Virus record (IMG/VR): IMGVR_UViG_3300020047_005985
Span: 32,001-96,000 of that record
DNA: 64,000 nucleotides
Strand: one strand, 5' to 3'
DNA from: a virus
Lineage: Duplodnaviria > Caudoviricetes
Shown one piece after another: positions 7,071-28,083 of this stretch (position 1 is the first letter of the stretch; each line of letters starts with the position of its first letter). The notes beneath the pieces were generated by a model, which made no database searches, was not told the DNA's origin, and saw only the letters and a list, made by a program, of their open reading frames with translations. The position numbers and the translations under genes were made by a program.

Positions 7071-7144
7071 TGGAAGAAGTTAGATTCGAACTAACAACCA
7101 CAGAATGATGGAATCTGCTGCTCTACCAATTGGCATACACTCCC
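7071..7144 (-). pseudogene. tRNA-like element with 9-nt anticodon loop (Trp-like)
   Basis: Stem GCAGA/TCTGT around TTCCATCAT; intact T arm; weak acceptor stem. Confidence 0.7.
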
Positions 7145-7202: not shown

Positions 7203-7317
7203 CATCTGTTTTTATACTTAAATTCAATGCTCTACCACTGAGCTATACGTCCGTAGTTAAATAAGTAATAGAGGACGTAAGAAGAATTGAACTTCTGACC
7301 TTGAGTTAGAACAGATG
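7203..7317 (-). ncRNA. circularly permuted tRNA-like RNA (YrlA/Y-RNA-like topology)
   Basis: tRNA 3' half (7305-7273) precedes 5' half (7252-7223); 7-bp acceptor closed by a 20-nt loop; ends paired by CATCTGTT/AACAGATG. Confidence 0.85.
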
Positions 7318-7329
7318 GCTTTCAAAGAT

Positions 7330-7407
7330 GACTAAAACTAAAGCTTGACTCACAAAACTATCTACTAAAAGTAAATACCATCATTTTGTAAGACTAATGC
7401 TAAAGTT
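7330..7407 (-). repeat. UAG-rich repeats CTTTAGnnTTAGTC
   Basis: Two near-identical copies (7330-7346, 7392-7407) and a degenerate middle copy; 7 UAG triplets in about 70 nt. Confidence 0.6.
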
Positions 7408-7424: not shown

Positions 7425-8180
7425 TTAAAATAGAAATTCAAGTACCTTGTTTCCAAGATCAGATTCTTGACTTTCTATTGTATTTGCATTTTCTAAAGCT
7501 GCAATAACAGCTTTATATAAATTATCATATTTGGCTAAAATAATAGCTCGTTGACGAGTTGTGTACTCCCCTGAGTATTCTTGAGCTGTATAGGAACCAA
7601 TATTTACTTGCGTAGATTTTTCACCTACAATTGGCTGACGACTTTTATCTGGATGCGGATCAACTAAAATATAACTTTCCTTAATTGTGGTTTTTGAAAA
7701 ACCTTCATCAATTGGACTTTCATAAATCTCACGTCCCTCATGTTCTCCATTTGTTGATTCTTTCCAGATTACAGATTCTTTTCTGATTGGAAGTTCATGA
7801 ATCAAACTTTTAATTTTACCGTCCAAAATAGACTTGAGTCTTAAAAGTTCCAGGGTAGTGTAAGTTCCCCAATTTTTTCCATCTACAACTAAATCAGAAG
7901 TTACTCCTGTTGCATTTGTTTTTTCAATACTGAATACAATATTGAAATAATCTTGAACATGAGTTTTAAACCAACTTAATTGTTCTCCAACAGTTGAAGC
8001 AACTGCTTCATATCCACGCTTACTAGGTTCATCTGCATACCCATCAATAGGAGTATATGTTTTTTGATAACCTTTAAATAATCCTTGTTTGTTTTTGAAT
8101 TTACTGAACATATCATCCAGCATTAAACTAAATCCTTTTTCCACCTTATCTCTAAGGCCAAGTTGTACGGCTAATTTCAT
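7425..8180 (-). CDS. conserved hypothetical protein upstream of permuted tRNA-like RNA
   Basis: 251-aa ORF with LF.G..KTY.P and A.E.AN motifs, helical N- and C-termini. Confidence 0.85.
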   Translation of the reverse strand: MKLAVQLGLRDKVEKGFSLMLDDMFSKFKNKQGLFKGYQKTYTPIDGYADEPSKRGYEAVASTVGEQLSWFKTHVQDYFNIVFSIEKTNATGVTSDLVVDGKNWGTYTTLELLRLKSILDGKIKSLIHELPIRKESVIWKESTNGEHEGREIYESPIDEGFSKTTIKESYILVDPHPDKSRQPIVGEKSTQVNIGSYTAQEYSGEYTTRQRAIILAKYDNLYKAVIAALENANTIESQESDLGNKVLEFLF

Positions 8181-8205
8181 TACTAAAGTTTAAATATTAT
8201 TGTAG

Positions 8206-12028: not shown

Positions 12029-12107
12029 AAAAATAGCTATCTAAAACTCAATTACTTGAGAAACTTCGCTATTTTAGTTTTTTACTACGCGTTTATGTAG
12101 TTTTAAT

Positions 12108-12231
12108 TTAGTTAGACAGGATTCGATACCTGCACACAACTACTTCACTTCTGATACCATAACAGGACTTATCGTTGGGCATTTTCATTGCTATCATCCT
12201 CTGGTTAGCGTCTATCTTCCGCCACTAACTA
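12108..12231 (-). ncRNA. tRNA-like RNA with ~70-nt insert replacing the anticodon arm
   Basis: Acceptor TAGTTAG/CTAACTA, Leu-type D arm TGGCGGAA..TAGACGC, T arm GCAGG TATCGAAT CCTGT. Confidence 0.75.
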
Positions 12232-12239
12232 ATTTAAAG

Positions 12240-12615: not shown

Positions 12616-14781
12616 TTAAAATTTTATTTTAATTGTTCGTTTATGACTACCTGATAACTTCAATATTAACTCCTCGGAAATAGTCGAATTAAAACCCAAT
12701 CCACACAACTGTTTAGTTGCTGGTTCAAGTTTTGTAGTTTCACCTAATACTTCCATTACTTTACGATGTTCTAATAAATCAGAATTTAAGAACTCCGTAT
12801 GAAATGAACGTAAAGCAATATCAGATTTACAATTATCAAGCATAAACATGTAATGTTTGTTGCCTGTATTATTATCACCCCAAAAGTTAGGAGATAAGCA
12901 AACCAAGTTGACTTTATGGAATTGATTGGTATCAAGATTCCAAATCTTCGTAGAAGCAGATTGTGATTCTAAAATCTGACAATTATTTAAATCAGGAATA
13001 AATTCTACTTGTCCATTTTTACACAACAGTTTTCCCAATTCAACTGTTCCTTTATGACTAGCCTTAACAAATAAAGATGTGATTTCCCCAAGTATTTCAA
13101 CTTCAGCCGTAAAATCTGTTCGAACAGTCGGTCCACTATAATTATGAACAAACAATCTGTATTCACCATTTGGCATAACAGAAAGATTTGAATATGTCAA
13201 ATTTTCTACACGTTTTTCAGGTGGAAAATGACCATCACATCCTTGAGCATCCAAATCCAACATTCCTGATGATGGTTGCATACTACGTCTATTACTATAG
13301 TAAATTTCATTACCATTAGGCTCTTTACAATGTAAGTCGTAATCAGATGTTGTTTTTGGAAAGTGAATACTTACTCGAATAGGAGCTTCAATTTTACCAC
13401 CTCGATCTTTAACAGCATCTTTAATCATACTTTTACCTGCAAGATTACCATTATAAGTCCAACCAAAATTGTTAGACCATTTAAATGCTTTCTTACTGTC
13501 AGGATTATTTGCCGTATGCAATGCTACTAAGTTACCACTAAATCTATTTTCAAGAAAAGCTTCAATTGAAGCGCATGTTGGAAGAATATCCTTCATAAAC
13601 TTTTCAATAGAAACTTCTTCAATACCATCAAATTGACTACGTTTATGTTGAGTAGATGTAGATGGTGCAACTTTATCAAATACAGATGCTTGTTTAATAG
13701 TATCTGTGCCTACATTTTGGTGAAGAATTTCTGAGATGTTAATATCATCTAATGTAGAGAACCTACGATCAAATGATTCTTCGTATCCATTTTCTTCAAC
13801 AAACTTTTTAGCTTCCGCAATTTGTTTTTGACTAATAGGAGCAGTAGCTTTCATGTAATTAGCAGGATCAACTCGCTTATTCCATGTAAGTACAGCCTTA
13901 TTCAAATCTTCCCCCTGTGTTAATTCTACACAAAGAGTTCCAATTAATTCATTTCTAAATTTAGCAAATGGTAGATTGTTGGATTTAATCCAACACCAAT
14001 TATCCTTCTCTTTAGTTGGTACATCTTTGTATTCAGTTGCAAACTCAATAAACTTTTTAAGCTTATCTAAGTATGAATCACCATTCAACAAACTACCTTG
14101 TTGAATCAAATCACGCACTAACACTAATGTATCCAATGAAATTTCATCAAGACCTCTTTTGAATACATTTTTAGCATCACGATGATTACCTTGAATAGAT
14201 TCAACTGAGTTACTAGAAAAATCTACAAACTTTTTAGGAAGTATAGCATTAAAATGATAAAATGTATATACTTGACCTGGAGTAACTACACCAAATTTGT
14301 CAGCTTCTTCCTGAGTATAAATTTTGTTGCTTTTTTCAAAGCCTAATTTATATTCAGCTTGAGTTTTATTTGTAGATTCATAATTTAATAGTCTATTGAG
14401 AGTATCGTATGATTCTACAAATACATTTTCAATTGGATTATTCTTTAAAAGAAATGCTACATTGTTTGCAGGGCGAGAGTAAATATTATCAGACAGATCT
14501 ACTGTATCAAACATTGTTACAATCTCACCATTGACTAAAGCTACAATGTTACCATAACGATGAATAAAATTCTTGTCATGATTACATGTATGTTCAGTAG
14601 AATTTGGATCTCTGAATACAGGATCAGCTTCTTTAGTGAAACTTGAGATATACTTATCCCAAACTTCATGTCCAGAAATTTTAGATCTGAATAAAACAGG
14701 TTGTTCACACATAAATGCAAACTGCTGTTTAATTGCTTTGTTAAACTCTTGAAATTTCATATTTCGTTGACAGTACTGCAC
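12616..14781 (-). CDS. large conserved phage protein with YfaP/DUF2135-like domain
   Basis: DYDLH..EPNG..IYY...G.LD.D...VEN.......G.Y...VHNY motif; likely start MKFQ at 14760. Confidence 0.85.
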   Translation of the reverse strand: MQYCQRNMKFQEFNKAIKQQFAFMCEQPVLFRSKISGHEVWDKYISSFTKEADPVFRDPNSTEHTCNHDKNFIHRYGNIVALVNGEIVTMFDTVDLSDNIYSRPANNVAFLLKNNPIENVFVESYDTLNRLLNYESTNKTQAEYKLGFEKSNKIYTQEEADKFGVVTPGQVYTFYHFNAILPKKFVDFSSNSVESIQGNHRDAKNVFKRGLDEISLDTLVLVRDLIQQGSLLNGDSYLDKLKKFIEFATEYKDVPTKEKDNWCWIKSNNLPFAKFRNELIGTLCVELTQGEDLNKAVLTWNKRVDPANYMKATAPISQKQIAEAKKFVEENGYEESFDRRFSTLDDINISEILHQNVGTDTIKQASVFDKVAPSTSTQHKRSQFDGIEEVSIEKFMKDILPTCASIEAFLENRFSGNLVALHTANNPDSKKAFKWSNNFGWTYNGNLAGKSMIKDAVKDRGGKIEAPIRVSIHFPKTTSDYDLHCKEPNGNEIYYSNRRSMQPSSGMLDLDAQGCDGHFPPEKRVENLTYSNLSVMPNGEYRLFVHNYSGPTVRTDFTAEVEILGEITSLFVKASHKGTVELGKLLCKNGQVEFIPDLNNCQILESQSASTKIWNLDTNQFHKVNLVCLSPNFWGDNNTGNKHYMFMLDNCKSDIALRSFHTEFLNSDLLEHRKVMEVLGETTKLEPATKQLCGLGFNSTISEELILKLSGSHKRTIKIKF

Positions 14782-14852
14782 ACCTTACTGGTTTAGGTTT
14801 AATAATTCTCTATGTGCAACTTGAGAATTTTACTATTGGTATTTTAAAATAG

Positions 14853-14925
14853 TCAGGATGGATTGACTCGAACAACCGACCTCTTGCGTCCAATGCAAGC
14901 TATCTACCAACTGATATACATCCTG
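14853..14925 (-). tRNA. trnP: tRNA-Pro(UGG)
   Basis: CTTGC AT TGG AC GCAAG; C1-G72, A73. Confidence 0.9.
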
Positions 14926-15056
14926 GAATTATGGGTATTCCAACCCACGCATTTAACTTGTTTTACATCAAAGATCTTTTGCCTGTAAAGCCTTTAGGAG
15001 CTTTCTGGTGCTAAATGTAAAACCTCGTTGCTTATTTTTTAAAATCTTAAAATTAG

Positions 15057-15207
15057 TAAGGGCAACTGGACTTGAACCAATAACCTCTGTCTAGTTCGGC
15101 AACTCCGGCAGGACTCTAACCTGCAACCTTCAGACCTGAGCCTGACGCTCTAACAATTGAGCTACGGAGTCAATGACAGCGCTCTATCCAAATTGAGCTA
15201 TACCCTT
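15057..15207 (-). ncRNA. outer tRNA whose anticodon loop contains a second tRNA
   Basis: Acceptor AAGGGTA/TGCCCTT, D stem GCTC/GAGC, anticodon stem CTGTC/GACAG, T arm ATTGG TTCAAGT CCAGT. Confidence 0.85.
15100..15171 (-). ncRNA. inner nested tRNA-like element with 6-nt anticodon loop
   Basis: GACTCCG/CGGAGTT, GCTC/GAGC, TCAGG CTCAGG TCTGA, GCAGG TTAGAGT CCTGC. Confidence 0.85.
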
Positions 15208-15298
15208 GTTTTCTTAATTAACTCCAGAGGATTTCTCCTATCTTGCACCACACATAAAAGTGTACTCGTTACTACTGGATATCTTTAATTAAGATTTG

Positions 15299-15370
15299 TT
15301 GACCCACTAGGATTCGAACCTAGAACCTTCGGCTTAAAAGGCCGATGCTCTACCATTGAGCTATAGGTCA
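15299..15370 (-). tRNA. trnK: tRNA-Lys(UUU)
   Basis: TCGGC CT TTT AA GCCGA cloverleaf. Confidence 0.93.
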
Positions 15371-15608
15371 TTTTAGAATACCACTTAGGAAATCACCCTT
15401 TAGAAAAGACTTAGTGGCACGCCTTTAATTCCTTTACGTAGAATCAACGATTGTTTATTGGAAAAACAATAAAAATCCTCCAGCTTCACATGGCTGGCAC
15501 ACGCGATATTTATTTAACCGTTAAATATCTAAATCCGTTTATCTAGAATAAACTTAAGGAGTTAATCCGTTTAACTATACGACTATTTAACTCATAGTTG
15601 AGGATTTG

Positions 15609-20484: not shown

Positions 20485-20792
20485 AATACTTTTTATTTTT
20501 TGAATAATTGCCTACTCTTTTGAAGGATTTTTGGCATACTCCTTATAAACCCTCTGCACTCTGTTATAATCATCAATGATTTCATTCCTATCAATTAAGA
20601 TGGTGTATTAATTTCAACTATAGATTATAACAGCTTACCAGGGACTAGTGGGAATTAGAGTTAATAGGCAAAACACCCAATAAGAGTGACAAATCCTATT
20701 TACCTGCACTTCCGCAAGTGGAGATATTTGTTGCGGTATTTTTAAACATCAGATCAACGAGTATTATTGTCTCTATTGATCTTAAACTGGTG

Positions 20793-22324: not shown

Positions 22325-22597
22325 TTACAGGGTGGCAATCACATCAGCACCTGGCTTTGGGTTGATAAGGCAAGCCTTAGTCATATCACCATCAGGGATG
22401 AGGATAGACATAGGCAACTTAACATCCAAATCCTGTTGGCAGTTATAGTTGGTGCCATTGTCAGCAGCAACAAATAACTTATTGGTGTTAGGATTACGAA
22501 GAACATCCAATTTAGTAGCCCCAACATTCTGCTTGAACAGATTGATGGACATGAAACCAAATGTGGTTGTTGGTACTTGAGCAGCTTGATTAGCCAT
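22325..22597 (-). CDS. hypothetical protein, first gene of the minus-strand unit
   Basis: 90-aa ORF with V.RNP.T.KLF motif. Confidence 0.8.
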   Translation of the reverse strand: MANQAAQVPTTTFGFMSINLFKQNVGATKLDVLRNPNTNKLFVAADNGTNYNCQQDLDVKLPMSILIPDGDMTKACLINPKPGADVIATL

Positions 22598-26187: not shown

Positions 26188-26484
26188 ATGATAAAAGAAC
26201 TCATTAAAAGATATAAACAAGAAATACACCCGTGTATGCTTTGGCTGTTAATACATGTATATTATGATTTAAATACTAAAGCTTGGTATAATGGAGACCA
26301 CATACTAGTGGAAGGAGATGAATTTGAAAATTCTCCTGTTGAGGAGAGTGATGGTTATTCATTTGAGGTTGCACCCAAAGGTTATCTTAATATTCAAGAT
26401 TACACTTTTCAGGAATTAAAAGATTCGTTTGTTTATCTTAGTGAACAAGAGTTGAATTTACTTAAAACGTATATGAAAAGATGA
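26188..26484 (+). CDS. hypothetical protein
   Basis: 98-aa ORF. Confidence 0.7.
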   Translation: MIKELIKRYKQEIHPCMLWLLIHVYYDLNTKAWYNGDHILVEGDEFENSPVEESDGYSFEVAPKGYLNIQDYTFQELKDSFVYLSEQELNLLKTYMKR

Positions 26485-27035
26485 GTACCTTTGCAAGTAT
26501 TGATAAGCATCAAGATGGGAACTTTTGGGAACTTAATCCACATATTAAATATGTAGAACCTTTTGCAACTCTTTATTCTAATGATACTTCTAAGAGTAAA
26601 GAACAGTCTTCTAAAGATATGTGGTGTGTGCTTTGGTTAACTGATCCTGATGAAGAAGTTAATAAATATTATAGGATTGTGGATAAACAAGAAAAATTAG
26701 ATATATGTTTAAAATTTAATTCTAATTTTGATCCAAATAATCCTGTTGTTTCTGAATGTTTAGAAAAATATCCATACTTATGTTTGAATGCTGATGAATT
26801 AGCATATAAGCTTCAGAAAGATCAGTTAATTGAAATTAGTCAGTTTTTATCTAATCTTCCAATAACAATGGATACGGTTAAAGAGATTATTGATCTTAAG
26901 GCTAAGTTACCAAAGATATATCAAGATTTTGAAAAAATAGAAAAAATGTTTCAAAAGAATAAATCCGAACAAAGAGTTTGGGGTAATAGAAAACTAACTG
27001 CTCGCGAGAGAGGTTTAATAACACCTGATGAATAA
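26481..27035 (+). CDS. conserved crAss-like protein upstream of terminase (TerS candidate)
   Basis: F..LY..D.SK.K motif, helical C-terminus, position. Confidence 0.55.
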   Translation: MSTFASIDKHQDGNFWELNPHIKYVEPFATLYSNDTSKSKEQSSKDMWCVLWLTDPDEEVNKYYRIVDKQEKLDICLKFNSNFDPNNPVVSECLEKYPYLCLNADELAYKLQKDQLIEISQFLSNLPITMDTVKEIIDLKAKLPKIYQDFEKIEKMFQKNKSEQRVWGNRKLTARERGLITPDE

Positions 27036-27169
27036 AGAATTGTTTGACATTTTAGTTTCCAGTAAGAGTATGGCTTTATTTTTAAAAGAATATTCTTCTG
27101 GAAATATTGAGAATAATTGTGAAAAGCTGATAAAGCAAATAAATAGTTACTTAGAAAACGAAATACTTT

Positions 27170-27514
27170 ATGGAGATAAAGATAATACCATTGCATCCTT
27201 TTCCGAAAAATCTTCATGTAATATTCAGTAAGCCTGATGAAGCTTTTGATTATATTAAACAGCATTCACAAGGTTTAGATCATTTGACTGTTGAAGATCT
27301 TCATTATAGTTTTGGTTATACTGTACGAGATGGAAACTGCACAATTTTTCTTTATATTCATAAACCACTAAAGAAAGATATTGGTTTGTTGGTACATGAG
27401 TCTTTACATGCTGTTCAGTTTTTAATGGAGTTTATGGATACTCCTTTTACAAATGATACTTCAGAAGTATATGCGTATATGCAACAATATATTATAAATA
27501 AAATATTAAAGTGA
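27170..27514 (+). CDS. HExxH metallopeptidase-like protein
   Basis: LLVHESLHAV...EVYAY. Confidence 0.7.
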   Translation: MEIKIIPLHPFPKNLHVIFSKPDEAFDYIKQHSQGLDHLTVEDLHYSFGYTVRDGNCTIFLYIHKPLKKDIGLLVHESLHAVQFLMEFMDTPFTNDTSEVYAYMQQYIINKILK

Positions 27515-28083
27515 TTACTGATATTCAAAGATTAAAAAAAGATCTTATTTATATTGAAGATAGAACTAGATTCTTGGTTAATGTGCCATCTTTACATCCA
27601 GATCATCCTGATTTTCCAGGATTATGGAAAAAGTATTTTCAGTATTGTATTGAAGGTTTATGGGCATATGATAATGGGGGTTGGAGATTTATGCCACCAA
27701 CTTTATTTTATTACGCAAACTTTTTTAAGATTCAACATACAGAAAGTGGTTCTAAAGTCAGAAGATATGTTAAACCTACTATAAGAGATTTAGACTGGTT
27801 AATACATTATTCTTATTTAGAAGCACAAGGTTTTTCTGGTTACAAAAATGATAATTTATATAGTTGTGATATTGCACTTATAAAAGAAAATCTTTATAAG
27901 GAATTAGAGAAATCTAGTAAACCTGAACTTAGACTAAGGTTTAATCACATACATTCTAAAGATGGTAAAAGAAAACAATATATTCCTGCAAGAGAGTATA
28001 TAAAAAGATTACATGAAGAAAATTTAGGTAAACCTTTATATGAAAATCCTGCAAGAAATATTATTATTTTTGGTTCTCGCGGT
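27511..28083 (+). CDS. terL: terminase large subunit, exon 1
   Basis: G....G..F....LFYYANF..I, P..RDLDW; ends inside Walker A at GSRG. Confidence 0.88.

Follow-up and report, generated by a model that had tools for sequence, protein, structure and literature searches.

A tRNA-shaped insert in the anticodon loop of a phage tRNA-Val gene as a candidate intron for tRNA end-processing enzymes

A cloverleaf within a cloverleaf

How can a phage tRNA gene be expressed when a second, complete cloverleaf lies within its anticodon loop? This question is raised by a locus in a 64,000-nucleotide stretch of phage DNA (hereafter, the window). An earlier note, made from the letters alone, had described nested cloverleaves at 15057-15207, with CTCAGG as the inner anticodon loop and TTAGAGT as the inner T loop, and direct reading, Rfam and ARAGORN confirmed this description in every detail. 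The outer molecule is a tRNA-Val cloverleaf on the minus strand (15207..15057) that is interrupted in the anticodon loop (Table 1). It presents a 7-bp acceptor stem, U8-A9, a D arm, a 5-bp anticodon stem, a 5-nt variable loop, a canonical T loop (UUCAAGU) and a discriminator A, and its anticodon loop runs from AUU through the 72-nt inner cloverleaf to CCGAACUA. The element belongs to a Lys-nested-Pro tRNA cluster (14850-15375, minus strand). Taken without the insert, it has the cloverleaf, the NAC anticodon and the A73 of a tRNA-Val, and ARAGORN called Val on spliced constructs; in intron mode, the same program reported 15056-15207 as a tRNA-Val with a 76-nt intron.

The inner RNA displays a 7-bp acceptor stem, a D arm, an anticodon stem, a T arm and a discriminator G, and it matched the Rfam tRNA model (RF00005) with 57.6 bits, the gathering score being 29. 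The locus is, in other words, a phage tRNA whose anticodon-loop insert is itself predicted to be a tRNA by both ARAGORN and Rfam. The decoding parts of this insert are irregular. The anticodon loop (CUCAGG) has 6 nt instead of the 7 nt with U33 and a readable triplet, and ARAGORN gives a tRNA with a 2-base anticodon; the tail reads CCG, so that a chargeable 3' CCA is missing; and the elbow is non-canonical, with UUAGAGU (A56) as the T loop and a D loop that has no GG. Minimum-free-energy folding of the 151-nt element left the D and T arms of the outer molecule unformed, and we set this fold aside because the covariation presented below supports the cloverleaf.

The source IMG/VR virus record is 108,241 bp long, with direct terminal repeats and a G+C content of approximately 31%. 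The genome carries eight ordinary tRNA genes and no second tRNA-Val, and its main Val codons are GUU (26.0 per thousand) and GUA (23.4 per thousand). All tRNA genes in the part of the window that holds the nested element are on the minus strand, as is the adjoining gene for a DUF8224 protein. Relatives of this protein in a large protein collection reach 84% identity, tRNA arrays flank the gene in most relatives, and the bacterial members of the family belong mostly to Bacillota, which hints at the host. An Atlas search with DUF8224 gave no functional lead, and a scan for promoters and terminators returned matches at chance level only.

Other tRNA-like features of irregular build were observed in the window and in related phages (Table 1). 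In one permuted RNA of tRNA-like build, a 20-nt linker separates the leading T arm and acceptor 3' strand from the acceptor 5' strand and the D arm, and an 8-bp helix can bring the two outer ends together; if matured at all, this RNA would also require ligation in the anticodon region. A weak tRNA match (34.7 bits) adjoins tRNA-His, and its ARAGORN call needs a 2-nt "intron", which amounts to a 9-nt anticodon loop. In a third feature, tRNA-like ends (acceptor and T arm) are joined by approximately 70 nt that replace the anticodon arm; it folded no better than shuffled sequences (z -0.52) and gave no Rfam match. The clade is rich in otherwise regular tRNAs with 8- or 6-nt anticodon loops, and one of them, in L077, lies at the syntenic site and shares its D arm with the outer tRNA of the window, with a different loop. 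Partial matches to the tmRNA models were seen in L062, within a complete 129-kb phage genome with 26 tRNA genes. The 113-nt tRNA-like RNA of L059 (28.7 bits), present also in G002 and G003, has an extra T-arm-like hairpin in its variable region; with the insert in that region, the G001-G003 matches were rejected as nested tRNAs.

Table 1. Coordinates of the nested element and of other features (window positions unless a locus or genome is named)
Feature	Position	Strand	Evidence or remark
Outer 5' exon body (acceptor 5' strand, D arm, anticodon-stem 5' strand; element positions 1-33)	15175..15207	minus	Direct reading, ARAGORN intron mode, pairing and compensatory changes in six homologues
Outer anticodon loop, 5' part AUU (positions 32, 33 and one extra nt before inner +1)	15172..15174	minus	Junction comparison, six homologues
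Inner tRNA-shaped RNA, 72 nt	15100..15171	minus	Rfam RF00005, ARAGORN tRNA-???, pairs in six homologues
Inner-RNA tail CCG (CCA in five relatives)	15097..15099	minus	Tail comparison across the clade
Outer anticodon loop, 3' part AACUA (probable anticodon AAC, Val, then U37 and A38)	15092..15096	minus	NAC position in 6/6 syntenic homologues
Outer 3' exon body (anticodon-stem 3' strand, variable loop, T arm, acceptor 3' strand, discriminator A)	15057..15091	minus	Direct reading, ARAGORN, six homologues
DUF8224 gene (PF26675, phrog_1735), 721 aa	12616-14781	minus	Adjoins nested element
Permuted tRNA-like RNA	7203-7330	minus	
Weak tRNA match next to tRNA-His	7071-7144	minus	ARAGORN
tRNA-like ends without anticodon arm	12105-12232	minus	
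DUF805b RNA motif (RF02914)	20509-20544	minus	42.4 bits, gathering score 35.6
tRNAs with 8- or 6-nt anticodon loops	L077:5859-5935; L079:7818-7892, 15439-15513; L082:7132-7208; L063:2660-2734		
tRNA-Val genes with 12-13-nt anticodon loops	L005:8113-8192; L008:8785-8863		
113-nt tRNA-like RNA (L059)	G001 22358-22470		
Partial tmRNA-model matches (L062)	G004 14600-15000		
RNA ligase gene of the phage, 430 aa	G000 26238-27530	minus	Pfam domains, phrog_968
AAA_33 P-loop kinase frame	G000 7855-8187		

Assembly support, homologues and junctions

The nested element is not an assembly artefact, because public wastewater contigs from independent runs (three runs, two studies) cross both of its junctions. 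The contigs of run X1 (records 1 and 2) showed 0 differences, record 9 of X2 covers 14714-15179 and record 19 of X3 covers 15109-15364. The runs that bear the label RNA-Seq are probably DNA; their contigs showed no spliced joint, and the one joint reported was an unrelated tRNA chimera. Two other records (X3 record 18 and X4 record 25) hold an inner-like tRNA, corresponding to window 15105-15168 with 8-11 differences, in unrelated flanks.

A search for the same nesting in related phages, suggested in the earlier note, was rewarded: homologous elements were found in five other phages (L063, L078, L158/L161, L165 and L006), in all of them upstream of the DUF8224 gene. The L063 homologue was obtained by BLAST and alignment of contigs from DUF8224 relatives, with no use of structure. 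ARAGORN intron mode misses the nested genes of L006 and L063, and hence we used a script that excises predicted tRNAs one by one, with ARAGORN then deciding if what remains on either side folds as a tRNA, which yielded L078, L006, L158/L161 and L165. Among 58 IMG/VR loci around DUF8224 (58% identity or less), there was one nested case, L006. The nested D-arm pattern was found in 0/43 further DUF8224-carrying IMG/VR records and its reversed control gave 0 as well, and therefore nesting is patchy in the clade and the pattern is specific. As to broader searches, 25-mers taken from the 5' junction and from the outer 5' half had 0 exact matches in IMG/VR, a loose junction pattern had 10 with no tRNA among them, two metagenome scans had 0 matches, and BLAST against INPHARED phages returned generic tRNA-Lys similarity only.

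In the alignment of the window element with those of L063 and L078, 111/111 stem cells were paired and 15 of the 37 pairs had changed on both sides. None of 500 shuffles equalled this result, and slid partners gave 0-3 double-change pairs; chance folding is excluded because pairing in the homologues and double changes exceed both controls. With all six elements, the outer cloverleaf (21 pairs) had 14 compensatory double changes and the inner one (21 pairs) 13, each with 0/126 cells unpaired, so that, of 42 pairs in both folds, 27 carried compensatory double changes and 0/252 cells were broken. Unbroken pairs plus compensatory changes in six elements show that both cloverleaves have been maintained by selection. 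It is hardly credible in this light that the locus is a dead gene, that is, a tRNA-Val broken by the chance insertion or duplication of a tRNA, or an assembly chimera: the defective inner loop and tail of the window and the patchy distribution among DUF8224 relatives would suit such an origin, but the contigs of two studies and the intact, covarying pairs of the six homologues speak against it. The same contigs and covariation contradict the artefact, or one-off insertion free of conservation and covariation, that the earlier note had foreseen as a possible outcome.

The junctions of the six elements, given as 5' loop part, inner tail and 3' loop part, read AUU/CCG/AACUA in the window, ACC/CCA/GACAA in L063, AUC/CCA/UACUA in L078, AUC/CCA/AACAA in L158, UC/CCA/AACAUAA in L165 and CC/CCA/UACAU in L006. 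The outer Val anticodon NAC (A35-C36) follows the inner tail immediately in 6/6, with variable nucleotides around it, and the outer discriminator is A in 5/6, matching the expectation for Val identity. The inner tail is CCA in 5/6 of these syntenic elements and, at the level of the clade, CCA is encoded in 10/11 inner RNAs (the window having CCG) versus 0/28 free-standing tRNA genes. The inner anticodon loops, on the other hand, vary (CUCAGG, CUUACAG, CUUCAGG, UUUUAGG twice, and CUAAUAA): those of the relatives have 7 nt, with the anticodons UAC (L063), UCA (L078), UUA (L158 and L165) and AAU, and a loop of 6 nt occurs in the window only. The A56 of the inner elbow is present in 5/6. That the inner shape and tail and the outer Val anticodon are kept while the inner loop drifts is as expected if the inner RNA is a processing handle and the outer one the working tRNA, and selection acts on the inner shape and its CC(A) tail, on the outer shape and on the outer Val anticodon.

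These comparisons also bear on the idea of a two-in-one gene, in which the inner tRNA would be the real product and the outer halves a folding or processing scaffold to be discarded. We regard it as very improbable. It is true that the inner RNAs of L063 (where UAC is a Val anticodon), L078, L158 and L165 look normal, with their 7-nt loops and CCA; however, that of the window, with its 6-nt loop and G76, could be neither charged nor used in decoding and nevertheless has intact stems, the inner anticodons differ among close relatives with no sign of stop-codon recoding, and it is the outer anticodon and discriminator that are conserved. Recoding of stop codons as the explanation for the inner UCA and UUA anticodons was rejected on the basis of code-11 ORFs, whose coverage of the structural half of the genome (60-100 kb) is 97-99%.

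Exact excision through position 76 would leave an outer loop of 8 nt in the window (AUU+AACUA), L063, L078 and L158, of 9 nt in L165 and, among the six, of 7 nt in L006 only. The 7-nt loop with anticodon UAC that had been put forward for the window thus needs correction: the 3' exon is more likely AACUA, because the anticodon directly follows CCA in all five relatives, so that AAC is the likelier anticodon and exact excision results in 8 nt, with an atypical U at outer position 37 after joining. No uninterrupted Val allele was present among the loci fetched. Two DUF8224 relatives, L005 and L008, both of which encode PF09414 ligases, have tRNA-Val genes whose 12-13-nt anticodon loops (Table 1) consist of a 5-6-nt CCA-containing insert followed by a canonical 7-nt Val loop; this arrangement suggests nested alleles from which the inner body has disappeared while its tail has stayed.

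Nesting extends beyond this family. A generic pattern of two tRNA D-arm starts approximately 40 nt apart matched 72 loci in IMG/VR. In at least 31 of them an outer cloverleaf can be closed, and full parsing succeeded for 17 distinct elements. Arg, Asn, Ile, Met-like and Val are among the identities of the outer molecules; the inserts are in part full tRNAs and in part mini-tRNAs with no anticodon arm, and nearly all end in N-CCA. When the insert is removed from +1 to A76, L127 (Arg UCU), L091 (Asn GUU), L097/L132 (Ile UAU) and L006 (Val UAC) are left with a canonical 7-nt loop, and the remaining members keep, like the window, one extra nucleotide (8 nt).

A possible route of excision and ligation

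We believe, with a probability of roughly one half, that the element is a tRNA-shaped intron in the only tRNA-Val gene of the phage, removed by RNase P and a cut after CCA and followed by ligation of the exons. The intron would be a full cloverleaf with a CC(A/G) tail placed between outer positions 33 and 34, and the coincidence of its ends with those of a mature tRNA (+1 and 76) points to RNase P and to a cut after CCA. Cleavage by host RNase P at inner +1 would give the 5' exon a 3'-OH end, and a second cut, made behind the CCR tail by an endonuclease of the RNase Z/BN or RNase E type, would give the 3' exon a 5'-phosphate. The anticodon loop would then be sealed by an ATP-dependent RNA ligase, for which the Rnl2/Rnl5-like enzyme of the phage is a plausible candidate, and the resulting tRNA-Val would read the dominant GUU and GUA codons. 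RNase P and RNase Z/E leave 3'-OH and 5'-phosphate ends, which are direct substrates for ATP-dependent RNA ligases with no healing step, while the RNase Z of a Bacillota-type host may be inhibited by CCA instead of cutting after it. In the window, the inner RNA would serve as a processing handle that lost its decoding features (6-nt loop, G76) and kept its shape and C74-C75. Intron-like removal by RNase P and 3' processing with joining of the halves had already been proposed in the earlier note, and it fits the conservation, the covariation, the CCA tail confined to inner RNAs, the Val anticodon, the ligase gene and the lack of self-splicing or bulge-helix-bulge (BHB) features. The data establish the anatomy of the element, its conservation and covariation, the CCA contrast, the conserved Val anticodon and the existence of a ligase gene, and from these we infer all cleavages and the ligation, as well as the fate of the one extra loop nucleotide and the function of the spliced product.

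The RNA ligase gene that, according to the same proposal, was to be looked for elsewhere in the genome is indeed present (Table 1). Its product combines a PF21189 OB domain with PF09414, carries a KWHG motif, matches phrog_968 ("RNA ligase") over the full length (E 4e-58) and is distinct from the DNA ligase of the phage. We gave little weight to its presence because such ligases are common without nesting and were not found in two phages with nested tRNAs: PF09414 also occurs in 9/30 DUF8224 relatives with no nested pattern (5/14 of the complete ones), and no Rnl1, Rnl2 or RtcB was found in G016 and G023, two complete phages with nested tRNAs. Co-occurrence of a ligase is thus not discriminating, and it was discarded as a test of splicing. 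The search of the phage genome disclosed no RtcB, CCA-adding enzyme or RNase Z-like protein; EndA (PF01974) was also absent from it, and control genomes gave matches.

Two known kinds of intron were considered and rejected. A group I intron does not agree with a 76-nt insert, which is too short and whose only Rfam match, even at E values up to 10, is tRNA. A BHB intron does not agree with junctions that flank a 7-bp acceptor stem at position 33/34, nor with the lack of EndA. Related to the latter is the possibility that the intron is released by an endonuclease leaving 2',3'-cyclic phosphate and 5'-OH ends, which a kinase/phosphatase and a ligase would then process as in the repair of anticodon-nuclease damage. 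T4 Pnkp and Rnl1 repair anticodon-loop breaks in this manner, and the phage has an AAA_33 P-loop kinase frame (Table 1) besides the RNA ligase. We nevertheless consider this route quite improbable: there is no EndA-type endonuclease, RtcB or BHB geometry, and intron ends that match those of a mature tRNA (+1 and 76) point instead to tRNA end-processing enzymes.

The main rival of the intron reading is an unspliced structured RNA. The double cloverleaf, or base-paired halves, could work unligated as a stable, tRNA-like decoy or sponge for tRNA-binding factors or for nucleases of the host that target tRNA, or as some other structured RNA. Consistent with this, both anticodon loops are non-canonical in the phage of the window, the genome and its relatives hold tRNA look-alikes (6-, 8- and 9-nt loops, a permuted tRNA), the inner elbow departs from the canonical one (A56 in 5/6, D loop with no GG), and CCA could protect such an RNA against RNase Z. 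In a decoy, however, there would be no reason to keep a Val anticodon exactly behind CCA across six diverged phages, or to keep exon ends from which, in other members of the class, canonical 7-nt loops can be rebuilt, and we deem it unlikely.

Relation to known systems

The earlier note knew of no described phage example, but such introns had been remarked upon. Devoto et al. 2019 described conserved "enigmatic" tRNA introns in Lak megaphages, one of which "may itself encode a tRNA" (PMC6784885), and a 2026 survey, dealing with jumbo phages that use alternative codes, repeated the remark that tRNA introns may encode tRNA (PMC13037316). In the literature, we found no paper proposing or testing a mechanism for tRNA-encoding phage tRNA introns. 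Those introns resemble the present one in that the anticodon loop of a phage tRNA is split by a conserved insert predicted to be a tRNA; in contrast, they are found in phages larger than 200 kb with alternative codes, and the phage studied here has 108 kb and the standard code. The present case adds the full-size inner cloverleaf, the six syntenic homologues, the quantified covariation in both folds, the CCA contrast and the fixed position of the outer anticodon.

The finding has a practical side. Standard tRNA finders mis-annotate such loci: the inner pseudo-tRNA is reported and the real tRNA-Val is overlooked. The six-member family would also provide a clean test system, with diverged versions of which one has a non-decoding inner RNA and others have functional-looking ones.

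The tRNA introns of bacteria and phages are not known to be removed by any route but self-splicing. Group I introns, which have a P3-P8 ribozyme core and are usually longer than 200 nt, likewise interrupt the anticodon loop of bacterial-type tRNA genes in bacteria and phages, whereas the insert described here has 76 nt and no ribozyme core. A conserved, non-catalytic, tRNA-shaped intron would imply protein-dependent splicing by RNase P, a 3' endonuclease and an RNA ligase. Protein-dependent removal is known for the tRNA introns of archaea and eukaryotes, which rely on a BHB structure, EndA/TSEN and RtcB or Trl1, usually at position 37/38, and one of which, in archaeal tRNA-Trp, carries a functional C/D box RNA. 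The candidate intron would share with them the anticodon-loop location, the dependence on proteins and the capacity to be a functional or structured RNA, but it lies at position 33/34 and has a 7-bp acceptor stem in place of their 4-bp BHB helix. In mascRNA (MALAT1) and in mitochondrial tRNA punctuation, a tRNA-shaped module is cut from a longer transcript by RNase P and RNase Z; the excision proposed for the inner RNA would follow the same working principle, except that their flanks stay unjoined and the flanks here are a second tRNA that would require ligation.

An intron that mimics a tRNA and is excised by the universal tRNA end-processing enzymes, with an ATP-dependent RNA ligase resealing the anticodon loop, may tentatively be proposed, from the comparisons made here, as a third kind of phage tRNA splicing, and in relatives with an intact inner RNA one gene might give rise to two tRNAs. 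The sealing step has its closest parallel in T4 Rnl1/Pnkp and in Rnl2/Rnl5, since a phage ATP-dependent RNA ligase would close a break in a tRNA anticodon loop and a gene for such a ligase is present. While the T4 system repairs damage inflicted by the host, here the splicing would be scheduled, with a putative role for a ligase whose gene is common in non-nested relatives. If true, phage RNA ligases would have a scheduled task in addition to the repair of damage.
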